64,000 nt of DNA from Selaginella moellendorffii (taxonomy: Eukaryota > Plantae > Lycopodiophyta). The DNA is taken from the NCBI RefSeq assembly GCF_000143415.4, contig NW_003314366.1, positions 372,001-436,000 of the forward strand, given 5' to 3'. Below are positions 3,839-47,772 of this stretch, one piece after another. Both the position numbers and the translations under genes were made by a program. Position 1 is the stretch's first letter. Each line of letters begins with the position of its first letter. A model generated the notes under the pieces. It was not told the origin of the DNA and searched no databases. It was given only the letters and a program-made list of their open reading frames with translations.

Positions 3839-6087
3839 TGTAAAGAACCAAGTCCCAAAGGTGTCGTAGGCTAAAGGATCCCCGAAAGCATGACCAAAAT
3901 GACAAAGAGTTCATCAGATGGGATCGAGTCAAAGATCGAATCCAAGACTGACTTTGAGACTGTAGCACACGTGGTTTTGACCCTTTATCCTATGGTGATT
4001 TACCATAGGATAACACCAAGAAGCGGAATCTAAACCCTCTTTGTGCCACGTGACAGTTGCCACGTGTCACATGCCACGTGTCCATAGGAACCCGAGGTTC
4101 AAGGCCTTGGGCCACTGAATGAAGGAACGGTGCCAAACTCCCAAGCGTGGAGCCAAGGAGTGATGGAACCGGACCACGGAGCAACTCCCGAGCATACAAC
4201 CCAAGGAGCGAAGGGACAGGAGCTCGAGGCGACTTGGAATAGTCTAGGAGCAACCAGCATCCCAATGCCAGGACCAGCATGCAAAACGGAGCCAAATGGA
4301 GTCTAGTGCTATTTCAGCATATCGGTGGCCTAACGTGAGAGTATGGGTACTCCACCAGCTAGCATGGAATGGAACTTGGGCTTAGACCCAAACCGGACGC
4401 AAAACAAGGACAGGCACGCAAGCAGGAGCTAGACTATGCCTCAAGTTGGTCGGCCATGCCCGACCGACCCACTATCCCTACTATACATTTGGAACCCCCC
4501 ATAGCCCTCCCGCCCCCCCCACCCCCTCCCTTAGTATCAGGAGTTAGTCTCTGGGACAAGCTCGAAACTTACTAAATATGGAATGTTTCTAGATTGCGAA
4601 TTTGGATACGGGACGAACACCATTGTGTTCAGGACGATTTCTACATTCCGTAAATATGCCAAATGAGCAAATCTGGACACTTTCCATAAATAGCATTTAG
4701 GACCAAAATGAGACTAACACAAAGGGCATGATAGCGAGGGTGTTTGGCAGACACGGTAGGCTATCATTTAGCGATATTGAGGGACCAAGCTCAATATCGC
4801 GGAGGTTCCCAACACTAGCAAGTGCAAGTCAACGAATGAGTTTCTCTAACCAGGTCAAATATGCTTGACTAAATAGACACTTAGGAATTCCTTCCTTATG
4901 CTCATTTGGTCAAGTGCACACGCGAGGACTAGTTTCTCAACTAGCTTAGGTGGAGATTGATAACGGGTCCAGCAATACCAACCTCCTGCCATCGTGGCAG
5001 TAAGGTAAGAGTGTCCGTAAGGACTGGCCAACAAGTAACTTTCGATACCTGAAGTCACATTCGCGATAGAGACCGAGTTTGAGATAGAGTCTGGGATCGA
5101 GTCCGAGGCCGAATCAGAGACCAAGTTCGAGATCGAGTTTGAGACAGAGTCCAAGATCCAAATCGGGTCCGAGACCGAGTCTGAAGTCGAGTCCGAGATC
5201 GGGTCTAAGATCGAGTCTGAGATCGAGTCCGAGACCGAGTCCGCAGTCAGGTCCAAGATCGAGTCCGAGATCGAATCCGAGACTAAGTCCAAATACTAAT
5301 ACGGGTCAAGGGGTGAAAGCCCAAAGCATGCGTCTCCCAGGGGGGGGGAGGGCTACAGGGGGTTCCAAAAGTATAGTAGGGATAGTGAGGTCCAGGAACC
5401 AGTCTTGAAGGAACTCTCCAGTAGTGCTTCCAAACTGACTTAAAGTTGAGACTGGGGCCGAGGGGCCTTGGGTGGGAGTGAGCATGGACTTAGGTGGTGC
5501 CGGAGGGGCCACCCAAGGAAGTGCTCAAGAGTAGCTCCCACTCTCGAAAGGGAAACCGACTGCGGTGCTCCCGGCTCATGTGGAGTGGTGCCCCACGTGA
5601 GTACCTTGTGGCTCATTGGTCCTCGCCCTTCCTAGGGGCTTGGGCCTTCTCTTTGGGATAGAAGAAGGGGGGTAGAGGTACCCATACCGGGCTGTTAAGC
5701 CACGGTGTTTTGCCCCGGTGTCCCGAAGCAAGTATTGCACCTAAGGCTTGGGATTTAAAGGGTCCTATGATCAAGCCTTGTTGTACCAAGGGATGTGAGG
5801 AACTTGGAGGCTTGGTGTGCTTGGCTGCTTGTGCCTGTGGGGAGTGTAGCTGAACCTTAAGTCCAGTCTAACCTGGGGAGGGGGATTGGGAGAGATTTGG
5901 GAATCTGTGGATGGATGGCTAACGCTCCATTGCTTGTGTAGTAAGTAGTTGAAACCAAGTAGGACCAAGTAGGAGTTGGTACAATAGGCGAGAACCTTGG
6001 CGAGGGGACTTAACAAAAGCTAAGGTAGTGTTGGTCGGACAGACGAGGTAAGCTGGCAAATTGGAAATGAAAAATTTGTGGCTTACA
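3839..6087 (+). mobile_element. Solo LTR of family B, interrupted by solo LTR C
   Basis: TGTAAAGAACC...GTGGCTTACA; 5-bp TSD CTTCC at 3834-3838 and 6088-6092; homologous to 9792-10868 and 24956-26340. Confidence 0.92.
3961..5068. mobile_element. Solo LTR family C
   Basis: TG...TA ends (probably a mutated CA); TSD GAGAC at 3956-3960 and 5069-5073; shares the CCAAAwGTATAGTAGGGATAG block with LTR B, on the minus strand. Confidence 0.8.
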
Positions 6088-9791: not shown

Positions 9792-10870
9792 AGCATGACC
9801 GAAATGATAAAGAGTTCATCAGATGGGACTGAGTTTGAGATCAAGTCCAAGACCGACTTTGAGGCCGAGTTCGAGACAGAGTCCGGGATTGAGTTCGAGG
9901 CCAATTCCAAGATCGAGTTTGAAACCGAGTTTGAGACCGAGTTTGAGACAAAGTCCGAGATCCAAGATTGGGTCTGAGACCGAGTCCGAGGTCCAGTCCG
10001 AGGTTGAGTTTGAGATCGGGTCCGAGGTCGAATCTGAGATCGAGTCCTAGACCGAGTCTGAGGTCGGGTCCGAGATCGAGTCTGAGATCGGGTCCAAGTA
10101 CTAATACAGGTCTGTGTCTCCTGGGGGATGGGGGGGGGGGGGTTATTGTAGGGGGTTCCAAAAGTATAGTAGGGATAGTGAGGTCTAGGAACCAGTCTTG
10201 AAGGAACTCTCTAATAGTGCTTCTCTAATAGAGGTTGAGACTGGGGCCGAGCAGCCTTGAGTGGGAGTGGGCATGGACTCGAGTGGTGTCAAATGGGCCA
10301 CCTAAGGAAGTGCTCAAGAACAACTCCCACTCCCAAAAGGGAAACCAACTACAGTGCTCTTGGCTTATGTAGAGTGGTGCCCAATTTGAGTACCTTGTAG
10401 CTCATTAGTCCTCACCCTTCTTAAGGGCTTGGGCCTTCCCTTTAGGATAAAAGTGGAGGAGTAGGGGTACCCATACTGGGCCATTAGGCCACGGTGTTTC
10501 TCCCCGGCATCCCGAAGCAAGTGTTGCACTTAAGGTTTGGGATTTAAAGGGTCCCATAATCAAATCTTGTTGTACCAAAGGGATGTTAGGAATTTTGAGG
10601 CTTAGTGTGCTTGGCTGCTTGTGTCTGCGGGGAGTGTAGCTAAACTTTAAGTTTAGTCTAACCCAGGGAGGGGGATTAAGAGAGATTTGGGAATTTGTGG
10701 ATGGATAGCTAATGCTCTGTTGCTCATATAGTGAGTAATTGAAACCAAGTAGGAGCTAATATAATAGGTGGGAACCATGGCAAGGAAACTTAACTAAGGC
10801 TAAGGAAGTGTTGGTCTAATAGATGAGGTAAGCTAGCAAAATTGGAAAGGAAAAATTTGTGGCTTACAAT

Positions 10871-10883
10871 TTGGTATCTAAGC
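10871..10883 (+). promoter_or_regulatory. Primer-binding site (tRNA-iMet type, degenerate) of element B
   Basis: TTGGTATCTAAGC next to the LTR end; plant iMet PBS consensus is TGGTATCAGAGC. Confidence 0.8.
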
Positions 10884-10927
10884 TTTTTTCTCAGTTCTAG
10901 CGAAGGATAGAAGTAAATTGTTAAGTG

Positions 10928-12100
10928 ATGGCAAAGGTAAGGCATAAATGAACCAAGGCAGAGACGAAACCTCCCCCAAAGCTAGAGCCTTTGGTCAAAC
11001 AAGAGGCTATAGATGAAAAATCCTTGTAGAAGGAGGACTCTAGTGAGGAAATTTTCAAATAAGAGTCTGGTGGTGAGGTTCGGTCATCCAAGGCTTGATT
11101 AGACGTTCTAGAAGGACAATTAGCATAGACCAATGCCCTGCTGGAGACTCTCGTATGCAAGCTAAAGCATGACAAGAAGCAGAAGAAAAAGCAAAAGACT
11201 GCAAATGCTAGAAGTGCAGAAGGTGCGGAACCTTTAGTAGGGACTGAGGCAGAACCAAATAAGATTGAACAGACCGAAGTGGAATCAATCCCTTAAGCAG
11301 TTCCCAAGTACAAACCAAAGCCCCCACTTATCTTCAAGGGAGTGAATGATTATAAAGTGGTGGAGGATTGGTTTTATGATATGGAGGACTACTCTCGATA
11401 GTTGCAGTTACCGAGCTCAAAGAAGGTCCCATGTGCAAAACCATACTTGGCAGATAATGCCAAGTCTTGGTGGAGAATGACAGAAGCCAACAAAGGACCG
11501 GTGGCCATTTGGGAAATGATGAAGGCAAGGATTCGTGTGACTTACGTTCCTCCGAATGCTACTCTACACCTAAGGGATGAGCTGAGTAGGCTGAAGTAGA
11601 TCATAACTATTGAAGAGTATGTGAATGGGTTTATGGCAAAGAGGATACTTGTCATAGATATAGGTGATATGGATGCATTCCATGCCTTCATATCAGACTT
11701 GCAAACCTGGGCTCATAGCGAGGTGATGCATTGGAATCCGACCAACTATAAGGAAGCATTAGATACAACTATCAAAGTGCATTTCAATGATAATTTGTGA
11801 AAGGGGAACACGATGGGGTTGGGGTCAACGTTTAGCAAAGGGGCCAAACCAAGGGGGACATATGGCAAAGGAAAATTCAAGAAGAGTTTTGCTAAGAATG
11901 AGTCCTCGGGGTTTTGGAAAGGCAAATTCGGTGGCTAGCAAGCAAGTATGTGGGGGAGTCAAACGAAAAGGGACAAACCCACATATAAGAACGTCAAATT
12001 TACTAGTAGCATAGGAAATAACATATGCTTCAACTGCGGTGAAATAGGACACTTTTCGATGGAATGTCCCTACCCAAAGAAGACCAAAGTCAATATGGCT
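10928..12100 (+). pseudogene. gag of element B
   Basis: ATG at 10928; frame broken by stops consistent with C>T decay; KPKPPLIFKG...EDWFYDME...YLADNAKSWW; CCHC knuckle CFNCGEIGHFSMECP at ~12026-12070. Confidence 0.85.
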
Positions 12101-12695
12101 ATTAAGTTGAGTGAAATTTAAACTGAGGTACGTGATCCAATCCCTAGCTCAAAGTTACTCATTACACGAACAACTTTAGTAGAGAGTTATTTGCGACATC
12201 TACTAGCCCTCCGAGGGAAGTTTAGAGGTAGCTTTGTTAAGATCCATATTGACATAGGTGTTTGATGAAAGTGTTTGAGAAACTAAAAGAACACAAGCTG
12301 TATGCTAAAGAGAGCAAATATAACTTTGCTCAACAAGAGGTAAAATTTCTTGGGATGTGGTGGGCAAGAACAAGCTCAAGGTGGACCTTGAGAATGTCCA
12401 AGCAATCTAGGAATGGGAGCGACCATCTAATGTACATGAGTTGAGGGCGTTTCTAGGGCTATGCAACTACTATCAAAAGTTTATCAAACACTATTCGAAA
12501 GTAACCTTGCCCTTAACGTACCAAACGAGTAAAGGGAAGATGGTATGGACAGCAGAATGCAAAACAGCATTTGTCCACCTTAAAGGGAAGTTAAGCAAAA
12601 CTCTTGTGTTGACATTACCAGACTTCAGTAAGGACTTTGAGGTAGAGATGGATGCTTTGGACTTTGTGTTGGGCACAATTTTGAAGCAAGACAAC

Positions 12696-14561
12696 TGTGA
12701 GACACAAATCCCTAAGCCCCAAAGTGGAGCCGAAAGGGTGCCACATGGTAGTGGCCAAAGTGAAAACCAAACGAGTGTAACATATTTAGACTAAAAGCTT
12801 CGACTTGAAAAGTCAAGAGTAGAAGTGGAACTCCCGATGGAGTGCTCAAGGAACAAGCATGAAGTAAGCAATAAGAGAGTCTCTAGAAAAGGGACACAAG
12901 AGGACTAACACATGACACATGGTGGAGTTCGAGATGGACCCGAGATAGGACCCGAGATGTACCTGAAATGGAGTCTGAGATGGAGTTCGAGATGGACCCG
13001 AGATGGACCTGAGATGGAGTCCGAGATGGAGTTTGAGATGGACCGCGATGAAATCCAAGATGGAGTTCGAGATGGAGTTTGAGATGGAGTCCGAGATGGA
13101 GTTCGAGATGGAGTCCGAGATAGGACCCGAGATGTACCTAAGATGGAGTCTGAGATGGAGTTCGAGATGGACCCGAGATGGACCTGAGATGGAGTCCGAG
13201 ATGGAGTTTGAGATGGACTGAGATGGAATTCAAGATGGAGTTTGAGCTGGACCCGAGATGGAGTCCGAAATGGACCNNNNNNNNNNNNNNNNNNNNNNNN
13301 NNNNNNNNNNNNNNNNNNNNNNNNNNNNNNNNNNNNNNNNNNNNNNNNNNNNNNNNNNNNNNNNNNNNNNNNNNNNAGATGGAGTTTGAGATGGACCCGA
13401 GATGGAGTTCGAGATGGACCGAGATGGAGTCCGAGATGGATCCGAGATGGAGTCCGAGATGGACCGAGATGGAGTCTGAGATGGAGTCCGAGATGGACCC
13501 AAGATGAAGTCTGAGATAGACCCAAGATAGAGTCCGAGTTGGAGTCCAAGATGGACCGAGATGGAGTCCGAGATGGAGTCCAAGATGGGCCCGAGATGGA
13601 GTTCGAGAAGGACCTAAGATGGAGTCCAAGGTCAAGACCGAGACCGAGACCAAGACCGAGACCGAGATTGGGACCGGGACTGAGACCGAGACCGAGGCCG
13701 AGGCCGAGACTGAGCCTGAGTTCAAGTCCAAGTCCGAGTTCGAGTCCGAGGGTGAAAGCCTAAAGTGTTTGTCTCCCAGACCCTAGTGAGCTCCAAAAGT
13801 ATAGTAGGGAGAGGACTACAATAGAGCCAGTTTGGCCAGGAATGGGTGGCACTACCTACTTCGATACCTGGCGTGGCTCAACGAAACCTTGCTCTAAGCC
13901 CATGACTAAAGCACCCAAAGGTGGAAGTTAGGGAGAGTACCTATGAGGTTCTCGTAGGGCCACGGTCTTTCGAAATATTGTCCCAAAGTCCTAGACTGTG
14001 GAAAGGAAGAGGAGTAACCCTTTAGTGTGGTGTCCAAGGATACAGTCACATGGTGAGGAAGTCCTAGATGACAGTGGGACTCGGTGGTCTGGCCTGTAGG
14101 GCTTGATCTAGTGGTAGTGTTGACGAACACGGCCATGTATAGAAAGGGACTTGGTAGGGATCGAAAAGGGATATTGGGGAAGGCTATTCCCCATGTCTGC
14201 AGGTATCCTAAGGATGCTAGGGAGTGGATCTGGGATGACTACTCATGAATGGATGGCCTAGTGTTTGAGAGACAGAACTATGATGTAGGTGATGTTATAT
14301 CATTGGTATGACAAAGGTGAATATACATGGCCTTAGCGTAACAGGCTGATATGTCAGTGTTACCTTTTGGTGTCAGTTATGGGACCGGACACGTGGAGCA
14401 CTTGGACTAAATGCAAGGGTTGAGTGGCAAGGATGCCATTCTCGGGGCTAGCCAGACCCAAGTCCAGAATAGGACTTATGGAGGTTGTGAGTAAGACTCC
14501 TCCAAGTGGTCTAAGGTGTGGTTAAGTGACTAAAGTAGAATGGAAAATTTAGTCGCTTACA
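12696..14561 (+). mobile_element. Solo LTR of family A (contains assembly gap)
   Basis: TGTGAGACACA...GTCGCTTACA; TSD ACAAC at 12691-12695 and 14562-14566. Confidence 0.9.
13277..13376. other. Assembly gap (100 N) within the LTR satellite
   Basis: Run of N. Confidence 1.
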
Positions 14562-15585
14562 ACAACCATCTAATAGCGTTCTTCTCGAAAACGTTTGACA
14601 AGGCTTAGCAAAAATGGCCTACCCACGAGAAGAAATTATTTGTGGTGGTCAACGTGCTCAAGGAGTGGTGACACTACCTTGGAACGCACTTCAAAGTTTA
14701 CATGCATAATCTGGCAATGAAACACTTCTTATCGCAGCCTGACCTAAGAGGGAAACAAGGTCGGTGGGCTAATGCATTGGCTGAGTTTGATTGTGAGATT
14801 CTGTATAAGTCTGGGAAGAGTAACATCGTGGCAAATAAGTCGAAAGGCAAATTTGAAATTGACGATATCTAACACAATAGCAACCTTTTGGGATGATGTG
14901 CAGACAACATATAAGAATGATGGTCTAGCACAAGAAGTATTGCTAAGGAATCAAGAGGCGCAAGATGCTCACCAGATAGGTGAGCTACCAATGGAAGAGA
15001 AAATAAGTTATGCAAAATGCAATAGACTCGAATATTATAAACAGATGAGGGTGTATACTCCAGAAGGGGAACTAAGGAAGGTAGCCTTAAAAGAGTGTTA
15101 TGATGGACCTCTTGCAGGACACGGCGGAGTGCCCAAGTTAATGGGTTTACTCAAAAGGAAGTATCACTGGCTAGATATGGCTAAAGACGTTTAAGACTAT
15201 ATAAAGACACGTCCAACATGTCAGTAGGTCAAAGCCGTGACTAAAGCTAGTGGAGGCTTGTTACAAAGCATTTCAATTCCAGATCAACCGTGGAAATGTC
15301 TTACGATGGACTTCATCACGGGACTCTTCCAAAGTGAGGGGTTTGATGTGATATTCATGGTGGTGGACCAGTTTTTGAAGATGGCACATTTCATACCCAC
15401 TACAATAGAAGTGCATGCAGAAGGCATGGCAAAGCTGTTCTTTAAACAAGTGGTTCAAGTGCGGGGAAGGCCAGAAAAGATTATCTCAGATCAAGATATA
15501 ATCTTCACTAATAGATTCTGGAGAGCTCTCCTGGAACAGTATTGCACCAAGTTGAAATTTAGTATAGCCTATCACCCACAAACAG

Positions 15586-15632
15586 GTATTGGGTATTAAG
15601 TCAAGTTTGATGGTAATAGCACTTCTTGATAG
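15586..15632 (+). other. 47-nt GT-AG intron-like insert in integrase motif HPQT/DGQTER
   Basis: ACAG|GTATTG...TTGATAG|ATGGA; removal restores T-D-G-(Q>stop)-T-E-R. Confidence 0.7.
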
Positions 15633-15769
15633 ATGGATAAACGGAAAGGGTGAATAGGTAGCTGAAGGATTATCTGCGATGCTATGTCTCGGGAGACCAG
15701 ACCAATTGGGTAAGTCATTTAGGACTTACAAAAATGTGCTATAACAACTCACCACATTCAAGTATTGGG

Positions 15770-18700
15770 TGTAAGCAACTAAATTTTCCATTCTACTTTA
15801 GTCACATAACCACACCTCCGACCACTTGGAGGAGTCTCATTCACAACCTCCATAAGTCCAATTCAGGACTTGGGACTTGCTGGCCCCAAAAATGGCATCC
15901 ATGCCACTCAACATTTGCACTTGGTCCAAGTGCTCCATGTGTCCGATCCCATGACCGACACTCAAAGGTACCACCGACATGGCAGCTTGTCACGCTAAGG
16001 CCATGCCCAATCACCTTTGCCACACTGGTAGTCCAATACCACATGCATCCCAATCTTGGCTCTCCAAGACTAGGCAAACCATCCGTGAGTGGTCATCTCA
16101 GATCCACTCCTTAGCATCCTTAGGATGCCCACCGACAAGGGGAATAGCCTTCCCCAATATCCCTCTATCAGTCCCCACTAAGTCCCTTTCTGCCCCTAGC
16201 CGTGTTTGCCAACACTACCACTGGATCGAGGCCCACATGCCCGACCACTAAGTCCCACGGTCCTCTGGGACTTCCTCACCATACGATTGTGTCTTTAGTC
16301 ACAACCCCAAAGGACTGCTCCTCTTCCTTTCCACAGTCTGGGCCTTTGGGGACAACATTTCGGAACACCATGGTCTTACGCGAGCCACCTGGGTACTCTC
16401 CCCGCCTTCCACCCTTGGGTGCTCTAGCCATGGGCTTAGAGCGAGGTTCCGTTGAGCCACGCCTGGTATCTAAGTAGGTAGTGCCACCCACACTTGGACT
16501 GGGAGCATCGGCCAGTTGATCTCCCGGGGGAACTAGAGTCGGCTCTTGAACACTTCACCAAGCTACCCCGCTTGTTGGTCTGTGTTCACTCTAGTATTGG
16601 ACTTCCCAGTGGTCAGTTCATCACCCAACACTGGGTCTGGCCTTCCTGGGCCAAACTGGCCTTTCCTGGCCAAACTGGCTCCACTGCAGTCCTCCCCCCT
16701 ACTATACTTTTGGAGCTCACCAAACCCCCTGAGTCTGGGAGACGAACACTTTGGGCTTTCACCCTCTCATACTCGAACTCGGACTCGGACTCGGACTCAG
16801 GCTCAGTCTCGGCCTCTGCCTCGGTCTCGGTCTCGGTCTCGGTCCCGGTCCTGGTCTCGGTCTCGGTCTTGGTCCCGGTCCCGGTCTCGGTCTCGGTCTC
16901 GGTCCCGGTCCCGGTCCCGGTCTCGGTCTCGGTCTCGGTCCCGGTCTCGGTCTCGATCTCGGACTCCATCTCGGGTCCTTCTTGGACTCCATCTCGGATT
17001 CCATCCCGGGTCCATCTCGGACTCCATCTCGGACTCCGTCTCGGTCCATCTCGGACTCCATCTCGGACTCCACTTCAGGCTCCACTTCAGACTCCACCTC
17101 GGACTCCACCTCGGAGTCCACCTCGGAGTCCACCTCGGACTCCACCTCGGACTCCACCTCGGACTCCACCTCGGACTCCAGCTCAGACTCCACCTCAGAC
17201 TCCACCTCGGACTCCATCTCGGACTTCATCTTGGTCCATCTCGAACTCCATCTCAGACACTTCCACGTGTCATGTGTTGGTCCTTTTGGGTCCCTTTTTG
17301 GAGCCTCGCTTATTGCTCGCTTCATGCTCATTCCTTGAGCACTCCATTGGGAGTTCCACTCTTGCTCTCGACCTTTTAAGTCGGAGCCTTTTAGTCCAAA
17401 TGTGTTACGCTCGTTTGGCTTTTGCTTCGGCCACTACCACGTGGCACCCTTTTGGCTCCACTTTGGGGCTTAGGGGTTTGTGTCTCACAACTCCACCACC
17501 CATAGACGAAGTTCAATGTCCTCATTGAACGGTAAACCCGTTTATAAAGTAACACCCACAAGTATTACCATTTCCTTCCTTGGCACCTAGCCAATATTTG
17601 TCTATGGTTTGACCCCAAAGGCTCACCATGCCTTGTCCATCCTCTAAGGGGCATAGTCTCTCCAACATAGAGACTCATTCGGACACCTAGGGTGGTTTGC
17701 TCCCTTTTATAGGTTTAGTTCTCGCTAAACCCGTTTGAGATACTTTCTCTAACTCAATTCCACTACTCATTCTCGAGTAGTCCCAACTTCTATTGACATA
17801 ACCAATTCACCTTGGAACTTTTAATTTTGACTTCTCGAAGTCAATTTCTTTGGTGTCTTTGACACCTTTCACTGCACATATTATGCAACTTCACTTCCCA
17901 TCCTAGGAAGCTCCCCACTTGAGGGCGCCATCGTCCTCCTTTCTATTTTATGCCACTTTTGGCACCAAGTTCTAGCCATTGTAATTTGTGCTAGAGCTAC
18001 CCACAGTGTAAGCAACCAAAGGGAACGACTTGAGAGACGATCCATGGGGTTCAAATATAGAGGGAAAGGGCCCATGAATAAGAGTGCACCCCCTTTTCCA
18101 ATCAGTTAAGGGTCTTGGGATATTTGGGGTTAAGCGTCCTTGGGTTTGAATAGTACTGGGCCCGGTGACCTCCCGGGAAGTCCAAACTTAGGAGTTTACA
18201 TTTGGTATCAGAGCGGTCTCGGGTCCGACTCTGTTGGTTGGCTAAGGGAATCACACCACATGTTGATTGACATCTGGCTGGTCCAGTTTGTTCCCGCTGG
18301 GCTCGACCCGAGGGGTAGGGTGTCAAGAGAGCGGGGCTCTCGGGAGAGCTGCGGCTCTCAGCTTCCGTTCACAAGGGCGTGAACTTGCAGGGAAGCGTGG
18401 TGGATTGTAAGCAACCAAAGGGAATGACTTGAGAGACGATCCATAGGGTTCAAATATAGAAGGAAAGGGCCCATGAATAAGAGTGCATCCCCTTTTCCAA
18501 TCGGTTAAGGGTCTTGGGATATTTGGGGTTAAGCGTCCTTGGGTTTGAATAGTACTGGGCTGGGTGACCTCCCGGGAAGTCCAAACTTAGGAGTTTACAC
18601 ACGGCCCTATCCTTTGGCTACTTCGCCATTCCCTCCCTTGGAGCTTTCACCTTTGCCAACTTGGAGCATTTGGGAATCTTTCCTTGGAAGTCCACTTCCT

Positions 18701-21700
18701 TTCCCGCAATCCGTTAGCATAAAACACATTTGTGTTCCTTGGCTAACTTTGCCATTTGGATTCCTTCCCATGATTCCCATGGCTCTTTTCTTGGCCACTA
18801 GTCTTTTGCTCCTATCCTTGATTGTTGCACCCAGCAACATAGGATCGCTACCTCCATTTTTTAGGTTTCCTTTCGGTTCCATAGCAAACACTTTGCTTTG
18901 CCAAGTCCAGAGGGTGTTCACCCCTAGTACGTCTCTTTAACATTTTCTATCGTGGGCTCTATCCACGGCCCAACTTTTTGAGGCCCTCCCTTGGATCTCT
19001 TATAGAGACTACTTTCCTTGGACTTACTATGCCATAGCATTGATATAGCTCATTTCCCTTAGGTGTTCTTCTCACTTGGTCACCTCAACCAAGCCACACC
19101 TTTATGAATAATTCAAATCAACACTTTGAACTAGGAATCATATTCCTTAACCCAAACAAAGACTTTGTCCTTGTTTAGCCACAAGATCACCTAGTGATCT
19201 CATAATAGGCTTATCAATAGGAACTAAGTCTTCCAGACCCTTCTAAGTTGTTGACTATGACCCCAGGGGCATCCCCCACACTTGGCGGTGCGCCCAAGCC
19301 AGCCCTTCCGGCCAAGGATCCATAGCAACTGAGACTTGGGTGTCCCCATCTCATTCACCACGTCCTTGGTGCCCTTTGCACCAAAGTGTTTAAGTTAGAT
19401 ATGCTGAGCTTTCACTCTAAGAAATCTAACCGTGCATCACGACTCCGAGGCATCCCTCGCTTGGCGGTGTGCCCAAACTAGTCTCCTCACTGAGAGTCCA
19501 TGACCACCGAAATATGAGTGTCCTCATATTCCAAACCATCACCACGCCCTAGTGATTTGGGACTCGAACCCAAGCACTAGAGGGTTGGGACTCGAACCCA
19601 ACCTCCGTATATGCATCTACGGACGGCATCACCCAGGATGCCTGGCATGACTCCCCACGCCGGTGCACCAACTTATACTTAAAGCGTGGTATAGATCATA
19701 GCTTAGGAACCTAGTTCCCCCACACTGCCAAGTCCTCTCACTTGACAAGTCCATGATCATGCATGGACTCTTCCATGCTTGGCCCCATGGCCCACCTTTT
19801 TGAAGTAATCACATTCAACTAGGGTATTTGTTCCCCCGACTTGCCAATCTCGCTTGGCAAGTCCTCCGACCACTGTAACATGGTTCCTGCATAAGCGTGA
19901 AAGTCCTTGACCATTGACTTTCGTTCAAAGCCCTCTCTTTGAACACTCGGGAACTACTTCCCTAACCTTGATAGTGTTGCCTCATGGCAAGCTTCAAGAC
20001 CACGCTTCTGCTGCGCCACTCTGATTTCGCGTGTTCCATGAACCATTTACACTTGGTTTTTCTAGGTACTAAGCTACCTAAAATCATCTTTGGGAACCTT
20101 GAAGGAACTCTGTCCCTTAGCTTGCTAAGGCCTCTCTTTTCGCAAGCTTTATAGTTGCCATATAGTCTAACATGGACAATTCCATATTTTAGACTCTCCA
20201 TGGCATCACAGTTGCTAACAACAACATCCTCGAGCACCCTCTTGATTCTCCACTCCCAACTTGCATAACCACCGTTGGATATGCCCTTCGATTTCTATGG
20301 TTCAGTTCCATCCCAATACTACTTGCCTTTTGGCCCCATATGTTTCCTTTGGTTATTCTCCTCCAAACTAGGCGGATAGCTTTGCACATTTTGCTATGCC
20401 TTAGCAAGTATGCTTAGGGATGAACCTGCTCGATAGCCTAGGGAGTGGTTCCTTAATCTTGGGCATGCTCACTTTATAATCCCACACACCAGGGTTAACG
20501 TTGCTGCTTATGGGCCTTTACATGCCCATCATTAGCTTTGCCAAAATTCCATTTTTAGCTTTATCCAATTTGGGTTGACAGTTTTCTCCTGTCTCCGCAA
20601 CCTTGGATATTTGGATAGCACATTTTATCCATCATTCACTAGGGACTTAGTCCCTTGGGCTTTATCTATTGCCCTCGCGACATCAAACACCACCTCCCGG
20701 TGTCCTAGAGTGTTTTGGTATCCCAAATGATGGCTTATTTGACAATGAACATTCCCTTTTATGACATTGACTTACTATATCGCAACATAAGCAATTTATC
20801 CCTCGTAAGGGTATATCTAACTTCTTTATGCCATTAAGAAGTCTTGGGTAGCTACCTTCTACTAGTTTGACCAATTATCTTGCACTTTTTGCTTAGTTGC
20901 CTCATAGCTGTCAAGTCCTACAACTCATTGCTTGGTGCTTCCACACCTCCATCATTATCTGGGTCACCACACTCCAACCACATGCCTTCCAGCTTAGGCT
21001 ATGCCATTCCCGTTTTTATTGGGATTCCCTTGGCAAGGGGTTCTTAAGAACCCACCAACATAACCTCAAGGTATCACACTTTGGCACATTTGGTGTCTCC
21101 ACACCATCGGCCCCACGAGCCTATCCTTATGACACTACTTACTAGTATCTAGGTCTTTGCCTAGGACAATATAGTTGTTCCTCATGCTAACTATCCATTA
21201 GCACCACACCATAGAGTTTGCACCCAACTCTAGGTCAAAGTTGCTTTCTTCTGGGAATATCTTTCCCACAACTTTAGTATTGCACATTCTGCCCTCAATG
21301 AGATATCTCTTGTTCTCATACTTGGATCTTATGATCCTCCCCATACCTCATGGGGCAGCATACACCTCAGTCTAAATGCTTCAACCAATCCCTTATGACC
21401 ATTCCTTGACCCCACTTGAGTCATCCAGCATTTTTGGACCTTGCTAATCCAACAACCTACGAGGTCTCAATCTTAGAGGTGCCAACTCACTGGAATACAA
21501 CTTCTTGTATTCATGTCCTACTCATAAGGACAATCTTTGCAAGTGTTACTCTAACACTTGATGATTTTCTTGGGGCTAACATTTGCCCCTTAGGACCACT
21601 TGTCCATGTGATGAGAATACCAACTCATCCTCTAAGTACACCCCCACCTCCTTGGGTTGTTCTAGCATTTAGAAGAGGTAGCTTCGGCTACCATTTCAAG

Positions 21701-23836
21701 GACTTGTGTCCTTTTCTGTATTTGACCTCCCGCGGTCATTACTTCTAGTCTCACATTTATGAGCACCCACCTCAACTATATGAGGATAATCTTGTGACTC
21801 CTTTATTGTTTTGGAGTCTTTATCTTTCCCGTGATCCTAACTATAGTTGTTTACCACAACTACATTAGCCAGTTTGCAAAGTCAAATGCTCATCTGGATC
21901 ACATCCTCAACTCTATGAGGAAAACTTTATACTGTTCCCAAGATCCCAAAGTCGTTCCCTTACTGGCCCCTTTTTTATCCACCACATCGCGCCCAAGTTC
22001 ACGCATGAACTTGAGTGGAGAGCCATGTCCTCTCGACATGCTACTTCTCAACGATAGGCCCACTCCTAGGACCTTCCGATGCTAATATCAATGGTGATAT
22101 ACTTGAGCACCAATAAAAGTCAGACTAAGGAACAACTCCGATACCAAATTGTAAGCGACTAAATTTTCCATTCTACTTTAGTCACTTAACCACACCTCCG
22201 ACCACTTGGAGGAGTCTCATTCACAACCTCCATAAGTCCAATTCAGGACTTGGGACTTGCTAGCCCCGAGAATGGCATCCATGCCATTCAACATTTGCAC
22301 TTGGTCCAAGTGCTCCACGTGTCCAATCCCATGACCGACACTCAAAGGTACCACCGACATGGTAGCTTGTCACGCTAAGGCCATGCCCAATCACCTTTGC
22401 CACACTGGTAGTCCAATACCACATGCATCCCAGTCTTGGCTCTCCAAGACTAGGCAAACCATCCGTGAGTGGTCATCTCAAATCCACTCCTTAGCATCCT
22501 TAGGATGCCCACCGACAAGGGGAATAGCCTTCCCCAATATCCCTCTGTCAGTCCCCACTAAGTCCCTTTCTGCCCCTGGCCATGTTTGCCAACACTACCA
22601 CTGGATCGAGGCCCACAGGCCCGACCACTAAGTCCCACGGTCCTCTGGGACTTCCTCACCATACGATTGTGTCTTTGGTCACTACCCCAAAGGACTGCTC
22701 CTCTTCCTTTCCACAGTCTGGGCCTTTGGGACAACATTTCGGAACACCGTGGCCTTATGCGAGCCACCTGGGTACTCTCCCTGCCTTCCGCCCTTGGGTG
22801 CTCTAGCCATGGGCTTAGAGCGAGGTTCCGTTGAGCCACGCCTGGTATCCAAGTAGGTAGTGCCACCCACACTTGGACTAGGAGCATCAGCCAGTCGATC
22901 TCCTGGGGGAACTAGAGCCGGCTCTTGAACACTTCACCAAGCTACCCCGCTTGTCGGTCTGTATTCACTCTAGTCTTGGACTTCCCAGTGGTCAGTTCAT
23001 CACCCAACACTGGGTCTGGCCTTCCTGGGCCAAACTGGCCTTTCCTGGCCAAACTGGCTCCACTGCAGTCCTCCCCCCTACTATACTTTTGGAGCTCACC
23101 AAACCCCCCAGGGTCTGGGAGACGAACGCTTTGGGCTTTCACCCTCTCAGACTCGAACTCGGACTCGGACTTGGACTCGGGCTCAGTCTCGGCCTCCGCC
23201 TCGGTCTCGGTCCCGGTCCCGGTCTCGGTCTCGGTCTCGGTCCCAGTCTCGGTCTCGGTCTCGGTCTCGATCCCGGTCTCGGTCTTGACCTTGGACTCCA
23301 TCTCGGGTCCTCCATCTCGGATTCCATCCCGGGTCCATCTCGGACTCCATCTCGGACTCCATCTCGGACTCCATCTCGGTCCATCTCGGACTCTATCTCA
23401 GACTCCACTTTGGACTCCATCTCGGACTCCAGCTCAGATTCCAGCTCGGACTCCATCTCGGACTCCATCTCGGACTCCACCTCGGACTCCACCTCGGACT
23501 CCATCTCGGACTCCACCTCGAACTCCATCTCGGACTCCACCTCAGACTCCACCTCGGACTCCATCTCGGACTTCATCTTGGTCCATCTCGGACTCCATCT
23601 CGGACACTTCCACGTGTCATGTGTTGGTCCTTTTGGGTCCCTTTTTGGAGCTTCGCTTATTACTCGCTTCATGCTCATTCCTTGAGCACTCCATTGGGAG
23701 TTCCACTCTTGCTCTCGACCTTTCAAGTCGGAGCCTTTTAATCCAAACGTGTTACGCTCATTTGGCTTTTGCTTCGGCCACTACCACGTGGCACCCTTGT
23801 GGCTCCACTTTGGGGCTTAGGGATTTGTGTCTGACA
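15770..23836 (-). mobile_element. Full-length family-A element, apparently non-autonomous (LARD-like); LTRs 22150-23836 (5') and 15770-17489 (3')
   Basis: TSD TTGGG/TCGGG; PBS revcomp (ctccgataccaaat) at 22136-22149; PPT revcomp at 17490; ~4 kb internal region with no recognisable gag/pol ORF. Confidence 0.88.
18007..18599 (+). mobile_element. Cassandra-type TRIM (194-bp LTRs with a 5S rRNA-derived segment)
   Basis: LTRs 18007-18200 and 18406-18599; PBS TGGTATCAGAGC; PPT GGGAAGCGTGGTGGAT; TSD CACAG/CACGG; empty site visible at ~9060; LTR carries GTTAAGCGTCCTTGGG...TAGTACTGGGCTGGGTGACCTCCCGGGAAGTCC (5S A-box/IE/C-box). Confidence 0.92.
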
Positions 23837-24500
23837 TCGGGGTGAGTCTATGGGAAGTCATCAATGGGTGAGTTATTGAAGGTCCTATGGAACTCGGCAT
23901 GGCCGAGTATCATGAAGAGTTACCTACTGTAGAAGCATTCACGACAGAAAGACTCAACATTTAGAATCTAGTGAGGGATTCCTTGGAATAGACTCAATAA
24001 AGGCAAACTAAGTACACAAACTAGAAGCGCCAGGATGTAGAGTTCTAACTTGGGGAGAAAGTGTGGTTGAACACCAAGAACCTAAGGCTACCAAGTGGGA
24101 TCAACCATAAGTTGACCCAAAGGTAAAAATGCATGTATTCCTAGAAATGAATTGATCATGAGTTCCTTAAGCAGGTTTGCAGGGCCTTACGAGATTGAGG
24201 CACGAATCAGTAAAGTGGCTTACTGCCTTGGACTTCCTCGAGAGATGGGGAAGATGCACCCAGTGTTTTATATGAATTTACTCAAGTTGTATTTTGAGGA
24301 TCTACTTCACAAGGACCAAATAAAACCTTTACCTGAGGTTATCCAAGGGAAAGAGGAATACGAAGTCAAGGCCATCTTCAATGTGTGCAAGAGCAAACAA
24401 CAAGGATGCAAAGTGAGGGAGTTCCATGTAAAGTGAAAAGAATTTCCACACTGCAAAGCAACATGGGAACCGGAAGAGAACCTAACAAACGTGGGACCTA
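23837..24500 (+). pseudogene. pol of element B, part 2 (integrase C-terminus, GPY/F module, chromodomain)
   Basis: GEKVWLNTKNLRL, RFAGPYEI, MHPVFYMNLLK, EEYEVKAI...EFHVK*KEFP...ATWEPEENL. Confidence 0.88.
24123..24174 (+). other. 52-nt GT-AG intron-like insert in the integrase GPY/F module
   Basis: CAAAG|GTAAAA...TTAAGCAG|GTTTGCAGGGCCTTAC; removal gives KLTQRFAGPY. Confidence 0.72.
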
Positions 24501-25255
24501 GTGGAGGAATTTTTGCAAGGAAGAACTCTATGTACTTATGTAAAGTTCAATTAAAGTATCAAATTGTGAAGTTGAGTAATGGCATATGTTGGGACCTGAA
24601 GGTGCACCGAATGTAAACTAATTAGCATGAGTTAACTAGGTTGACCAGGCGTAGGGAACTACTCCTGATTCCCCGTGGGGATATTGAATTCGTAAACATA
24701 TTCTACGGAGGTTGGGTTTGAGTCCCAACCCCTAGTAAAGCAAGGCTAGGTTCAAGTCCCAACCCCATACTAGGGCATGGTAAGGTGAGGGGTATAGGGA
24801 CACATATATTCTGTTGCCATGGGCTCTTGGTTGGGGAGGCTAACTTAGGCACACCACTAAGTGGAGGAATGCCCTCGGAAACATAAGCAACAAGTCATAG
24901 GATTAGAAAGAAACATTTGATGTGGGCATTGAACTTCTTCTATGGGTGGTGGAGTTGTAAAAAACCAATTCCCCAAGGTGTCGTAGGCTAAAAGATCCCT
25001 GAAAGCATGACCAAAATGATAAAGAGTTCATTGGATGGGACCAAGTCTGAGATCGAGTCCAAAACTGACTCTGAGACCGAGTTCAAGACAAAGTCCAGGA
25101 TCGAGTCCAAGGCCGACTTCGAAACCAAGTTTGAGACTGAGTTCGAGACAGAATCTGAGATTTGAGATTGGGTCCGAGATCGAGTCTGAGGTCAAGTTGG
25201 AAATTAGGTCCGAGGTTGAGTCCAAGATCGAGTCCGAGACCGAGTCCAAGGTCGG

Positions 25256-26050
25256 TGTAAGCAACCAAAGGGAACGACTCGAGAGACGATCCATGGGGTT
25301 CAAATATAGAGGGAAAGGGCCCATGAACAAGAGTGCACCCCCTTTTCCAATCGGTTAAGGGTCTTGGGATAGTTGGAGTTAAGCGTCCTTGGGTTTGAAT
25401 AGTACTGGGCTGGGTGACCTCCCAGGAAGTCCAAACTCAGGAGCTTACATTTGGTATCAGAGGGGTCTCGGGTCCGACTCTGTTGGTTGGCTAGGGGAAT
25501 CACACCACATGTTGATTGACATCTGGCTGGTCCAGTTTGCTCCCACTGGGCTCGACCCAAGGGGTAGGGTGTCAGGAGAGCGAGGCTCTCGGGAGAGTTG
25601 CGGCTCTCAGCTTCCGTTCACGAGGGCGTGAACTTGCAGGGAAGCGTGGTGGATGGTATCAGAGGGGTCTCGGGTCCGACTCTGTTGGTTGGCTAGGGGA
25701 ATCACACCACATGTTGATTGACATCTGGCTGGTCTAGTTTGCTCCCACTGGGCTCGACCCAAGGGGTAGGGTGTCAGGAGAGCAAGGCTCTCGGGAGAGT
25801 TGCGGCTCTCAGCTTCCGTTCACGAGGGCGTGAACTTGCAGGGAAGCGTGGTGGATTGTAAGCAACCAAAGGGAACGACTCGAGAGACGATCCATGGGGT
25901 TCAAATATAGAGGGAAAGGGCCCATGAACAAGAGTGCACCCCCTTTTCCAATCGGTTAAGGGTCTTGGGATAGTTGGAGTTAAGCGTCTTTGGGTTTGAA
26001 TAGTACTGGGCTGGGTGACCTCCCAGGAAGTCTAAACTCAGGAGCTTACA
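25256..26050 (+). mobile_element. Cassandra-type TRIM with tandemly duplicated internal domain
   Basis: LTRs 25256-25449 and 25857-26050; TSD GTCGG on both sides; internal unit occurs twice (25450-25653, 25654-25856); 5S-derived segment in the LTRs. Confidence 0.92.
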
Positions 26051-26681
26051 GTCGGGTCTGAAATCGAGTCTGAGATCAAGTCTAAGACCAAGTCTGAGTA
26101 CTAATACAGGTCAAGGGGTGAAAGCCCAAAGCATGCGTCTCCCAGAGGGGGGCTGTAAGGGTTCCAAAAGTATAATAGGGATAGATGAGATTCAGGAACT
26201 AATCTTGAACGAACTCTCCAATGGTGCTTTCAAATTGACTTGAGGTTGAAATTGGGACTAAGGGGCCTTGGGTGGGAGTGAGTATCGACTCAGGTGGTGC
26301 CAAATGGGCCACCCAAGGAAGTGCTCAAAAGCAACTCCCTTGTTCGTTTCAAATATTGTACTCAAGCATTTGTAAATTTTGATTTTGACAATCCCAAACA
26401 TTTTTATGTAAATTTTAATTAACTAAGTTTTACAATTCTTTTACACCTACTTTTTTCCTCACCAAGAGATGTTGCATAGAGCACATGACTATAATGTCCA
26501 TTGCTTTGATTATAACTTATAGTCAACCACTAGAAATAAAGCATCCCTGAGCAATTATGTCAAATAATTTTTGTTTATTTGCTCAGACATTATCCAAGTC
26601 CCGCAGAAGCGTTTTACTCGACTAGCATGTCTTTATCTTGAGAACTGATAGGAAGTTTTTATCAAAGAATGCATCGTTCAC

Positions 26682-28267
26682 TCACTTGCGATCCAGCTTC
26701 ATAGCTTTGAGATCTTCCAGCCATCCCTGGAGGCCACAAAACGACTTCCCATTCTCTTTGTCCATAGCTTTCCTCGCAAGGATCTTCAGGTTCTGCACTC
26801 TCTTCTTGATCTTCTTCCCCTCCTCGCTATCCATCACCTTTTTTATGCCGGCCTCGATCTCTCCTCGCTCGATCAATCCCTGCACCACTGTCTTGGAGAA
26901 TCTAACCCCGATCTTCCAGTCCTCCACTATAAACTTACAGTTGGTGTTTTGCTCGCCCCCGTAAGGCCACCCCAGCATTGGAATGCCATTAGCGATGCTC
27001 TCCTGGACGGAATTCCATCCGCAGTGCGTGAGAAACGCTCCCATGGAGGGATGGGCGAGAACTCTCAGCTGTGGCGCCCAGGAAACGATGAATCCCTGGT
27101 TCTTGGTCCTCTCGCAAAACCCATTGTAAGATTCGTTCGAGTGACCACCCACCACCAGCTCAGGTCGAATCACCCACAAGAATGGCTTCTTCGATGCCTC
27201 GAGAGCTCCCGCGAGCTCCTCGAACTGCTCCACGCTCAGCACCGCGATGCTGCCAAACGAGATGTAGAGCACTGATCCAGGCTCCTGCACATCCATCCAG
27301 TGAAGGCAATCCTCGTTCTCGGGTCGAAGCACGACATTCTTCCTGGAATCGTCGAACAAGAACAGTGGCCCCGCGGGGATGAATCGAGGCCCGAGCTCGC
27401 TGGCCATGAAATCGAAGGTGGGCGCCTCGAGGTCGTAGAAGGAATTGACGAGGACCCAGCGCGCGCGCTTCACGACGGGGGAGCGCTTGATGCAAATCTC
27501 CTTCAACACCTCCTGGCCCTCCGAGGCCAGCAGGCAATCGGGCACATCGGCCAGGCGGAGGGGCTTGACTCCTCGGACGTAATCGATGATCACGGCATTG
27601 GCCTCGTCGGGGGAAGCTTTCCCTGCGTCAACAGAGGAGGTTAATTCCAAAGGGAAGAACAGGGGAAATTTGATGGTCCAAGGGAAGAACAGGGTAAATA
27701 CAAGGGAAGAATAGGGGAAACGCTTAATTCCAAGGGAAGAACAGGGGAAGAACGGAGATTCGCACCTCTGCTAGGAAAGATGTGATCTTTCTCCAGAAGC
27801 TCTGGAATGTGGTACTCAAAGCTCGTCCATGCCGCGTTTCCCGACCAAAGAATGATCCTGGGGATTCCAAACACAGCCGCCACATCCTGGGTCCAATCGC
27901 AGATGTAATCCGAGACGATACAGCTGACCGGATCGCCCTCCTCGCCGAGCTTGCGGATCAAATCCTCGAGGCCGCCGGGGAGCTCTCGCGCGGCTGCCGT
28001 GAACCAGTCCCCCACATTTCCTGCGACGTTGGCGTCGACTCCTCGCGGGAGCTTCCACGAGAATGGGATGGAATGGAGGCGCAGAGCTTCCAGCCCCGCC
28101 GGCGCCACCCAGTGCTTGACGAACTCGTCGTGGAGGCTGTCGATATTGACCCAGGAGATTGTGAAGCTTGGATCTTGGGCGATGAACTTACAGAGATGGA
28201 TCATTGGGGAGATATGGCCTTGCGCGGGCGCTGGAAACGCCAAGACATGGACCTTGCGAGAAGCCAT
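26682..28267 (-). CDS. UDP-glycosyltransferase (family 1), copy 1; exons 28267-27766 and 27622-26682
   Basis: PAQGHISP, CIVSD, PSPG box WAPQLRVLAHPSMGAFLTHCGWNS...WPYGGEQ; GT-AG intron 27623-27765 keeps frame; alternative ATG at 28288. Confidence 0.92.
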
Positions 28268-29096
28268 GGTTTCCTTGGCAGGGTTCATCGGTATTTATTA
28301 GAATGGTTTTCTTGGCGGGGAAGGCAACGGATGTTTACACAAGTTGATTTCTCGACAAAGAGAGATTAGCATAAGCGTTGTGAGAGGCAATTCTGCTCTA
28401 GAACGAGACTCACATTGACCCAAGTTGCAATTCATTACAGCTCCTGAATTTGAACAAGCAATGATCCTATGGATAGCTGCCGCATGAATCTTGAGAAGGT
28501 GGCAAAAATCTGTCCCTACACCTGGCGGCTGGGAAGCTTCCGGCCTTTGAGAATATGGTAAGAGCATTTAACATTGGAGCAATCAGATTCATGAGTGCTG
28601 CTCTTGTCCACAAAATGGCCGTGGCTAAGTCCAGCCTAAAATAAGTGCATGATTATCGATCAAGAGAACGCTCGTTGTCTTCTCTTTGGCTGGAAATGAT
28701 GCCTGGTCTGGGCAAATGCAAGTTAGCAAAGATTCCGAGCAACAATACTGTACTCAAGCATTTGTAGAGTTTTTTTTTGTAAACATCGAAAATCCCAAAC
28801 GTTTTCATGTAAGTTTTAATTAACTAAGTCTTACAGTTCTTTTGCATCTGCTTTTTTCCTCACCGAGAAATGTTACATAGAGCACATAACTAATGTCCAT
28901 TTGCTTTGATTGTAACTTATGGTCGGTCACTAGCAATAGAGCATTCTTGAACAATTTTGTCAAGTAATCTTTGTTTGTTTGCTCAGCCATTTCCAACATT
29001 ATCCAAATCCCACGCACAAGCGTTTTACTTGACTAGCATGTGTTTATCTTCAGAACTGATAGATAGAAAGTTCTTATCAAAGAATGCATCGTTCAC

Positions 29097-33214: not shown

Positions 33215-33676
33215 GATTTCTTAGGTCTCTTCCCACTCTGAGAATTGATCCATGCGGATCTTATAACCATAGAACCATCACTTTATCCACGAGAATCTTG
33301 CCCAGCCAGTTGGTTGTTTTCCATTTGATCGTACACATCGACCAGCTTTTGCAGAAGTTGTGTTTATTATGAAACCTTTAAATGCCTTTCCCGGGCAAGT
33401 GTGACTTTTCATTGTTCCAGTTGTCCTCTTAAGTTTTAGTTTAGCATCTATGAAGCTTTCTTTCAATCATCTATTTTAAATTGTTTCTTTATGTTTTTCA
33501 AGTTAGTTCTAACGACGTAACACTGCTCGTTTGGATCTAGTCAAGTAAAACGCTTGCTCGTCCAAAATGCCCAACTCTGGCAAATTATATGAGAGGGCCA
33601 AATCCCTAAAACTAGGGTTGTTGGGAGGAGCAATGCCGCCATCGCCATCGCGGTAAGTCTCCTCTCTCTCGATCGA

Positions 33677-41316: not shown

Positions 41317-41440
41317 TATAAGCAATCAAATAGAATGGCTTGAAAAACCTTTTATTAAAGTTTAAGATAAAGGAAAAAGGCTCATGAATAAGAGTGTATC
41401 TTTCTTTTTTCAATTGGTGATTATTCTTGATATTTGTTAG
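41317..41440 (+). mobile_element. Highly decayed Cassandra-type LTR relic (second copy ~43525-43630)
   Basis: tataagcaatcaaatagaatggcttga...ggctcatgaataagagtgtatctttc..caattggt aligns to the TRIM LTR 5' half. Confidence 0.6.
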
Positions 41441-42405: not shown

Positions 42406-42551
<146 letters not shown>

Positions 42552-47656: not shown

Positions 47657-47772
47657 TGTTAGGCACCAAGTTAAGATAATAGGATAATGAAAGTGCCCTG
47701 CAATCAAGTGATTACCCCTTTAGTCAGTTGGCTTAGGGTGTAAGGGATAAGATCCTAACATTGGTATCAGAG
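47657..47772 (+). mobile_element. Small LTR-like relic (104 bp) followed by PBS
   Basis: TGTTAGG...CCTAACA terminal inverted repeat, then TTGGTATCAGAG. Confidence 0.6.

Follow-up and report, generated by a model that had tools for sequence, protein, structure and literature searches.

Two Cassandra-type miniature retrotransposons in Selaginella moellendorffii and a chromovirus group that may mobilize them

Cassandra elements are non-coding miniature terminal-repeat retrotransposons (TRIMs) with TGTAA ends. They carry box A and box C of a 5S-type RNA polymerase III (Pol III) promoter 18 nt apart in both long terminal repeats (LTRs), and a primer-binding site (PBS) lies close behind the 5S part. 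The three fern Cassandras AY860310, AY860311, and AY860313 are 565-606 bp in total, with LTRs of 187-208 bp and internal regions of 190-193 bp (Maiwald 2024, PMC10853983, Suppl. Table 2, as far as available to us). The text of Kojima 2024 (PMC10886601) that we drew on confirms that no helper of Cassandra has been identified, as an initial reading of the present DNA (the sequence-only reading) had stated. The literature that we searched, with Repbase outside its scope, reported neither a lycophyte Cassandra nor a named Cassandra helper. Here, we describe two Cassandra-type TRIMs (TRIM1 and TRIM2) in 64,000 nucleotides of the lycophyte Selaginella moellendorffii (contig NW_003314366.1, positions 372,001 to 436,000; hereafter the window). 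The sequence-only reading had proposed that a neighboring chromovirus, family B, or a close relative supplies their reverse transcriptase (RT) and integrase. We propose that an intact member of B's group may do so, but not the B copy in the window, which is dead. All findings are based on one window and two TRIM copies (Table 1).

Several described elements resemble these TRIMs. SmoRetroS4 and SmoLTRA4 (Gao 2016, PMC4717578) are likewise a TRIM and a gypsy partner in the same species. However, SmoRetroS4 has a 104-bp LTR, a total length of 393 bp, 98% LTR identity to its partner, and no 5S part in the text available to us, and is thus distinct from the present TRIM. The same source gives eight Selaginella TRIM subfamilies (SmoRetroS1-8), none labeled Cassandra among its eight 'Smo' mentions available to us; the present TRIM may already be catalogued under another, neutral name. 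Ajax and Helenus (TRIMp3; Kojima 2024, PMC10886601) also have a Pol III promoter fragment in the LTR, but Ajax is nemertean and has a tRNA-Leu PBS, and Helenus-1_SMo, from S. moellendorffii, is tRNA-derived, with an LTR of 120 and an internal region of 85. Helenus identity was rejected for the present TRIM because ARAGORN found no tRNA. Retrozymes (Cervera 2016, PMC4918200) are non-autonomous and were assigned to Ty3/gypsy by two short terminal boxes alone, an argument similar to that of the sequence-only reading; unlike the TRIMs, they have hammerhead ribozymes, 4-bp target-site duplications (TSDs), and no 5S promoter.

Both copies are shorter than 1 kb and contain two LTRs, a PBS, a polypurine tract (PPT), a TSD, and no coding region. 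TRIM1 is 593 bp long (LTR 194, internal 205, LTR 194), and its LTRs have 7 differences in 194 positions (Kimura two-parameter distance, K2P, 0.037). TRIM2 (795 bp) has the order LTR(194)-internal-internal-LTR(194) without a middle LTR, and at 25450-25856 the PPT of its first internal domain abuts the PBS of the second. Its LTRs differ at only 2 of 194 positions (K2P 0.010). The internal domains of TRIM2 have 3 differences in 202 aligned bases, and the middle LTR is missing almost exactly; this arrangement is unlike the usual LTR-internal-LTR arrays. As the sequence-only reading had stated, the TRIM termini, PBS, and PPT are present in the sequence, and both copies lie within sequence of B or of a second family, A: TRIM1 in the internal region of A and TRIM2 in the 3' LTR of B. 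Empty sites of the TRIMs are visible in other A and B copies. The 5-bp TSD that had been claimed for both copies is exact for TRIM2 (GTCGG/GTCGG, 5/5), but imperfect for TRIM1 (CACAG/CACGG, 4/5; CATGG at the unoccupied site in another A copy).

Two old TRIM LTR relics, 68-71% identical and changed mainly by C>T and G>A, show that the TRIM family is old and present among genes too. Both are carried by a local duplication (40099-43626), on either side of a (TA)n run. Targeting of A/B sequence by the TRIM is unsupported, with n=2 and the two old relics lying in the window's gene-rich part.

Box A and box C start at LTR positions 122 and 152, respectively, with an 18-nt spacer and in the same place in all four LTRs. 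Mismatches were counted against the Cassandra pattern of Kalendar 2020 (PMC7215508). Box A has one mismatch in 4/4 LTRs, while box C has one mismatch in 3/4 LTRs and three in the 5' LTR of TRIM1. Because each box carries at least one mismatch, the exact published query would miss this TRIM. The Rfam 5S model gave 28.9-31.0 bits, with E<=0.1 in three of the four LTRs, which is below the gathering score of 38. The 5S rRNA cargo of the sequence-only reading is therefore present as the promoter half only.

The predicted Pol III terminator, a run of four T residues (T4), lies 34 nt ahead of box A in the TRIM and 32 nt ahead of it in L001. This reference (L001:641-1094, minus strand) is a rearranged Cassandra with internal deletions from a metagenome contig, and was the sole match of our search for a Cassandra reference sequence. 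Box A of the 5S gene is placed at +51. Taking this position, we infer that transcription would start at LTR position 72. Counted from this start, and by position only, the T4 run lies at +17..+20, and a TATA-like stretch is located ~20-25 nt upstream of the start. A TRIM RNA of 419 nt with an 18-20 nt terminal repeat is predicted, which fits the 18-nt terminal repeat that Kojima 2024 (PMC10886601) describes for Cassandra. Pol III transcription of the TRIM from the 5S promoter is likely.

The Cassandra identity of both TRIMs is supported by their organization, in a lineage without an earlier report in the literature searched. Their PBSs match the Cassandra PBS TGGTATCAGAGC (tRNA-Met) at 12/12 and 11/12 positions. 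Unlike known Cassandras, they reside in a lycophyte, and no lycophyte appears in the part of the Cassandra table of Maiwald 2024 (PMC10853983) available to us. Further differences are the doubled internal domain of TRIM2, which lacks a middle LTR, and a diverged TRIM unit fused into a long non-coding element (A). Neither the LTR nor the internal domain, folded separately, had a significant folding z-score (+0.79 and -1.36). It is unlikely, in our estimate, that a local Selaginella LTR element captured the 5S promoter independently, as in Ajax, and is not a homologue of the fern and angiosperm Cassandras; this alternative concerns membership and not the helper. In its favor, the likeness of the TRIM LTR to the short-LTR family E and to the LTR remnant in the leader of A ends just ahead of box A. 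The fern Cassandra LTR primer matches the TRIM at 15/26 positions, which is at chance level (reached by 14.8% of 2000 shuffles). Maiwald 2024 (PMC10853983), in the portion consulted, discusses several Cassandra origins and leaves single versus multiple origin open. However, upstream of box A the TRIM LTR shows weak homology to L001, the one reference (6 and 9 of 1000 shuffles equal or better), the T4 run is at the same place, and the TRIM1 sizes lie inside or beside the range of the three fern elements.

Better evidence on the helper than the terminal signals treated below comes from family A. The full A element (~8 kb; TSD TTGGG/TCGGG) is inserted in the integrase of B, and the K2P between its LTRs is 0.035 (unique part) to 0.054 (whole). 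No pol was detectable in A with 159 polyprotein queries (best E 0.011). A and B have in common 33/36 nt ahead of the 3' LTR, 179 internal columns at 73%, and an LTR satellite. This profile suggests that A is a non-autonomous client of B-like machinery.

The first 300 nt behind the PBS of A are colinear with the internal domain, hairpin, PPT, and LTR start of the TRIM (identity at 196 of 278 aligned pairs over 340 columns), and this leader is joined directly to the LTR of A, at A's PBS. With the PBS and PPT removed and under soft scoring, the match of the leader to the TRIM internal domain was beaten by 0/1000 (TRIM1) and 5/1000 (TRIM2) shuffles. Two other scoring schemes gave 0-6/1000, and the leader took top place among 2474 windows. 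The leader of B was at background level (521/1000 shuffles, with a range of 372-991/1000). The TRIM internal domain plus LTR start scored 89-93.5 against the A leader, compared to 61-64.5 for the best unrelated window (1272 windows), and this score ranks with those of the TRIM LTR relics. The corresponding nhmmer search gave an E of 0.0047, versus a best E of 1.0 in the reversed-window control. A MAFFT alignment agreed with the pairwise alignments over the first 140 columns and misplaced the hairpin region. In addition, the last 45 nt of the TRIM matched the true 3' end of A (1/1000 shuffles for each of the two copies), but not significantly that of B (118/1000 shuffles).

Most likely, recombination at the PBS exchanged the original leader of A for a TRIM unit. 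Because this unit is ~30% diverged from the TRIM, while the LTRs of A are just 3.5-5.4% apart, A was probably copied together with it. A went on transposing with a TRIM-derived leader, so cis-sequences of TRIM type are likely accepted by its helper. The LTR distances of A (K 0.035-0.054) and TRIM1 (0.037) place their movements at similar times. The 5' LTR of B begins truncated within an A internal region (9792-9795), and A was inserted twice into the same B copy; A and B were therefore likely mobile over a long common period.

A hairpin ahead of the PPT connects the TRIM with both A and B. Tetraloop stems of 7-10 bp, with the loop 25-29 nt from the edge, were found in five of six ends (background 1.4%). 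In TRIM2, both A ends, and B, the tetraloop hairpin lies 28-29 nt ahead of the LTR, and between A copies it shows a two-sided change. A 7-mer also occurs at equal distance from the LTR in the TRIM and B (background 0.7%). By eye, a similar AGGA-loop hairpin was seen in published angiosperm sequences (barley, apple, Saruma). The 14-nt stretch GGGTGAAAGCCCAA of the A and B LTRs (~5310 and 23135) was also noticed by eye in the apple TRIM of Kalendar 2020 (PMC7215508, Table S3, as available to us); this match may be a convergent tetraloop.

The sequence-only reading had relied on the terminal signals shared by the TRIM and B, which turned out to be less specific. Of the 14 bases at the 5' end of the TRIM, B matches 11 (2 ends), A 9-10 (5 ends), E 10, and family D 6. 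The reverse complement of the 3' end of A matches the TRIM 5' end at 11-13/14. In the gene-rich part of the window, 11/14 is reached by 3/1087 TGT-starting and 2/80 TGTAA-starting 14-mers, so the TRIM-B match is above background, yet not specific. At the 3' end, A (10/14; 5 ends) is closer to the TRIM than B (9/14; 2 ends), and E matches at 7-8. The iMet-type PBS is indeed present in both the TRIM and B, but A equals B (10/12 each) and E reaches 11/12. The PPT is similar in the TRIM and B only with a shift of 1 nt (4/11 right-aligned, 8/10 shifted), and the PPT of A, identical to that of B, is likewise one base longer than that of the TRIM. Rosaceae and Spartina Cassandra PPTs match the TRIM at 9/11 without a shift. 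An apple sequence (Kalendar 2020, PMC7215508, Table S3, in the part available to us) has, by eye, the same 13-nt PPT/LTR junction as the TRIM, and so fits it better than B does. Many unrelated gypsy or copia families matching these signals equally well had been named as grounds for abandoning B, and this is partly the case.

These signals are also widespread. As given in the portion of Novikov 2012 (PMC3350952) that we used, five of the six chromovirus families described from S. moellendorffii have a tRNA-Met PBS (SM1, SM2, Fogey, Diluvium, and Cranky), and SM-Tcn1 has none. In chromoviruses and most copia lineages, tRNA-Met and 5-bp TSDs prevail (Neumann 2019, PMC6317226, Additional file 5, as available to us); among LTR elements of plants, 93.4% have 5-bp TSDs. 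The self-priming Tcn1, as well as Selgy and TatI, which have 4-bp TSDs and other tRNAs, were excluded as helpers on the source for these lineages, as available to us. The TRIM and B have no extended LTR or internal identity. TRIM-partner identities are 79-98% according to Gao 2016 (PMC4717578), and Kojima 2024 (PMC10886601) argues that Pol III TRIMs do not need shared LTRs, both as far as consulted.

The main copy of B retains gag-CCHC, RNase H, integrase, SH3, a chromodomain at ~24359-24490 (Pfam Chromo, E 1.1e-07), and a PPT, with protease and RT mostly deleted. This gag-(PR-RT)-RH-IN order of gypsy elements, followed by a C-terminal chromodomain, identifies it as a chromovirus. The copy carries an A solo LTR (12696-14561), the full A element, and TRIM2. 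It is dead. Its gag has 11 in-frame stops, tblastn recovered just the final 36 codons of its RT region, and no catalytic motif is present. Its two truncated LTRs were paired by gene order and differ by K 0.13 and 0.19 where short unique sequence (two stretches, 36 and 128 bases) was compared; the B solo LTR (1136 bp without the nested insert D; TSD CTTCC) is 0.12-0.17 from them. As measured on these short stretches, the main copy is much older than both TRIMs (LTRs 12-19% apart versus 1.0% and 3.7%). This copy was thus neither coding-competent nor active when the TRIMs moved, and does not qualify as their autonomous partner.

By described structure alone, and not by sequence, B resembles SM1-Galahad. 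SM1- and SM2-Galahad are Galadriel-related chromoviruses of S. moellendorffii, known to us from part of Novikov 2012 (PMC3350952). The SM1-Galahad LTRs are 1076/1146, compared to 1136 for B, and both families have a poly-G tract, a tRNA-Met PBS, a CCHC knuckle, and a chromodomain whose frame differs from that of the integrase core. In contrast, copies of B are 12-19% apart, versus a reported mean identity of 95% for SM1-Galahad, and the 12-bp LTR satellite of B is not mentioned for SM1-Galahad in the text consulted. The same text found no intact SM1-Galahad copy. It reports its sister SM2-Galahad as intact, with LTRs 99.7% identical, a tRNA-Met PBS, and a 5-bp TSD. In our searches for an intact B-like integrase, the best identity was 46-50% in 4/47 candidates, with none closer than 50%, and a second search gave <=47% among the best 150 matches; the databases were clustered at 50% and masked for transposon proteins, so this is weak evidence of absence. 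Three of the ten nearest matches were named, and none was from Selaginella.

Overall, we place slightly more than even weight on an intact, Galahad-like chromovirus of B's group mobilizing both A and the Cassandra TRIM; a relative, for example SM2-Galahad, would then act as the live helper. From the original proposal of B or a close relative, B's group is retained, while the B copy in the window, without an RT core and older than the TRIMs, is not. The remaining support for this group comes from two features that the sequence-only reading had not included, the TRIM-like leader of A and the common pre-PPT hairpin. Directly observed are the A-B homology, the A leader, the anatomy and TSDs of the TRIMs, the nesting order, and the decay of B. 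In the proposed mechanism, a Pol III transcript would start near LTR position 72, pass the 5' LTR's T4 run, and end at that of the 3' LTR. This RNA would be packaged by chromovirus Gag of B's group and primed by tRNA-iMet at the PBS, followed by strand transfer across the short terminal repeat and PPT priming. The hairpin-plus-PPT module and the TGTAA/TTACA ends would be read by the Gag, RT, and integrase of the helper, and integration would produce a 5-bp TSD. Two origins are conceivable for the A leader: RNAs packaged together could have undergone strand transfer at the PBS, or a nested insertion could have been followed by a deletion. Either way, A kept moving with this TRIM-derived leader. 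If true, the strand-transfer origin would prove a shared particle, while nested insertion would show compatibility only.

Several observations weigh against this proposal. The leader evidence comes from a single A copy, becomes weaker under strict scoring (41-43/1000 shuffles), and gives an nhmmer E of 0.83 with the internal-domain-only profile; moreover, the nested-insertion route does not require co-packaging. The hairpin and its distance window were picked after the data had been seen, TRIM1 has a 6-nt loop, and folding of the 3' ends gave weak z-scores only (-1.1 to -2.7; +0.5 for B). The TRIM spacers are off by 1 nt from those of A and B at both ends (LTR-PBS spacer of 2 nt, compared to 3 nt in A and B). 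Sensitive blastn on the window detected no TRIM-B match with E<0.1, and the likeness of the TRIM2 LTR to the TATA region of the B solo LTR (0-1/500 shuffles) does not hold for TRIM1 (35-67/500). No intact B-like element is shown, with no integrase >50% identical to that of B in our searches, and other tRNA-Met chromoviruses (Fogey, Diluvium) are reported as intact and recent in the part of Novikov 2012 (PMC3350952) consulted.

In a narrower version of this proposal, which is improbable, the dedicated helper would be the SM1-Galahad-like family B itself. B has the best same-end 5' match in the window (11/14 versus 9-10 for A and 10 for E), the common hairpin position, and a TATA region resembling the TRIM2 LTR, but its missing RT, gag stops, and LTR divergence, together with the unsuccessful published search for an intact SM1-Galahad, argue against it. 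There is a sizable, though below-even, chance that the TRIM is moved by a gypsy element with short LTRs, of the SmoLTRA4, Diluvium, or Fogey type, or opportunistically by any active element with a tRNA-Met PBS and 5-bp TSD. Family E can be aligned with that half of the TRIM LTR which lacks the 5S part (0, 1-4, and 0-17 of 500 shuffles under soft, mid, and strict scoring), and may be a weakly similar, 5S-less relative of that LTR. Besides its PBS (11/12) and 5' end (10/14), its LTR length equals that of SmoRetroS4/SmoLTRA4, and Gao 2016 (PMC4717578), as available to us, lists an autonomous S. moellendorffii gypsy with a 104-bp LTR, which is a match in size only. Mobilization by a generalist helper has been argued for beet in print. 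On the other hand, E was not significant by nhmmer (E 4.7), its ends are TGTTA/TAACA, and such a helper leaves the A leader and the hairpin common to A and B unexplained. Least probable is a Ty1/copia helper of the Lyco lineage, although a tRNA-Met PBS and 5-bp TSDs are found in 100% of its 11 elements (Neumann 2019, PMC6317226) and the flowering-plant TRIM partners in Gao 2016 (PMC4717578) are all copia, to the extent that both sources were available. Every sequence link found in the window, which offered no copia element for comparison, leads to gypsy-group elements, and the sole Selaginella partner in the available part of Gao 2016 is a gypsy.

Bases 1-26400 of the window consist of nested LTR elements, and the remainder is gene-rich. 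Family D (3961-5068) is a 1.1-kb solo-LTR-like insert within the B solo LTR, with TSD GAGAC and ends unlike those of the TRIM. A third gypsy pol (1174-3470; RT, RNase H, and integrase), decayed and with no LTRs seen, lies between two A LTR pieces. Inside their LTRs (for example 232-941, 5069-5282, and 22150-23836), A and B contain a 6/12-bp satellite of up to 56 copies; the long stop-free frames that it creates are probably not genes. A 100-N assembly gap (13277-13376) is located in the satellite of the A solo LTR. Right after the repeat cluster, three tandem UDP-glycosyltransferase genes, 87-91% alike, occupy 26350-33200; the one beside the cluster is 87-97% identical to seven S. moellendorffii proteins (top 7/25 matches), which points to this species as the most likely host. 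They are followed at 33593-36289 by a pentatricopeptide repeat protein with E and DYW domains (Pfam), of the organellar RNA-editing type.

Table 1. Positions of the TRIMs, related elements, and signals in the window
Feature	Position	Strand	Details
Family B solo LTR	3839..6087	+	
Family B main copy	9792..26339	+	5' LTR 9792-10868 (5'-truncated), 3' LTR 24956-26339 (3'-truncated)
Family A full element, non-coding, resembling a large retrotransposon derivative (LARD-like)	15770..23836	-	5' LTR 22150-23836, 3' LTR 15770-17489
TRIM1, Cassandra-type	18007..18599	+	LTRs 18007-18200 and 18406-18599, internal 18201-18405, PBS 18203-18214, PPT to 18405
T4 run, predicted Pol III terminator	18493..18496	+	LTR 88-91; sole T>=4 run of element, once per LTR
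5S-type Pol III internal promoter	18527..18569	+	box A, 18-nt spacer, box C; LTR positions 122-164
Leader of A, diverged TRIM-like unit	21852..22149	-	PBS, internal domain, hairpin, GTGGTGGAT, ~110 nt like TRIM LTR start
TRIM2	25256..26050	+	LTRs 25256-25449 and 25857-26050, two tandem internal domains
TRIM2 pre-PPT hairpin	25818..25835	+	7-bp stem, AGGG loop
Hairpin counterpart in A	17511-17530	-	
Hairpin counterpart in B	24916-24933		
Old TRIM LTR relic	41317..41436	+	120/169 aligned bases identical
Second old TRIM LTR relic	~43514-43626		113/167 aligned bases identical
Family E	47657..47772	+	104-bp LTR, TGTTAGG/CCTAACA ends, tRNA-Met PBS

More tentatively still, and with a probability that we consider rather low, Cassandra would be as old as vascular plants and ride on Galahad/Galadriel-type chromoviruses. 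The lycophyte element would then be a true homologue, A would preserve, as a fossil, a recombination of Cassandra RNA with a chromovirus-group RNA packaged alongside it, and the hairpin with a purine tetraloop 24-29 nt ahead of the 3' LTR would be a common recognition signal. If the lycophyte Cassandra is homologous beyond the 5S promoter, Cassandra would date back as far as the ancestor common to all vascular plants. By its sequence, the chimeric A leader ties the TRIM to a chromovirus group that already has a name, and the small genome offers an intact candidate in SM2-Galahad; the question of the Cassandra helper therefore becomes testable.

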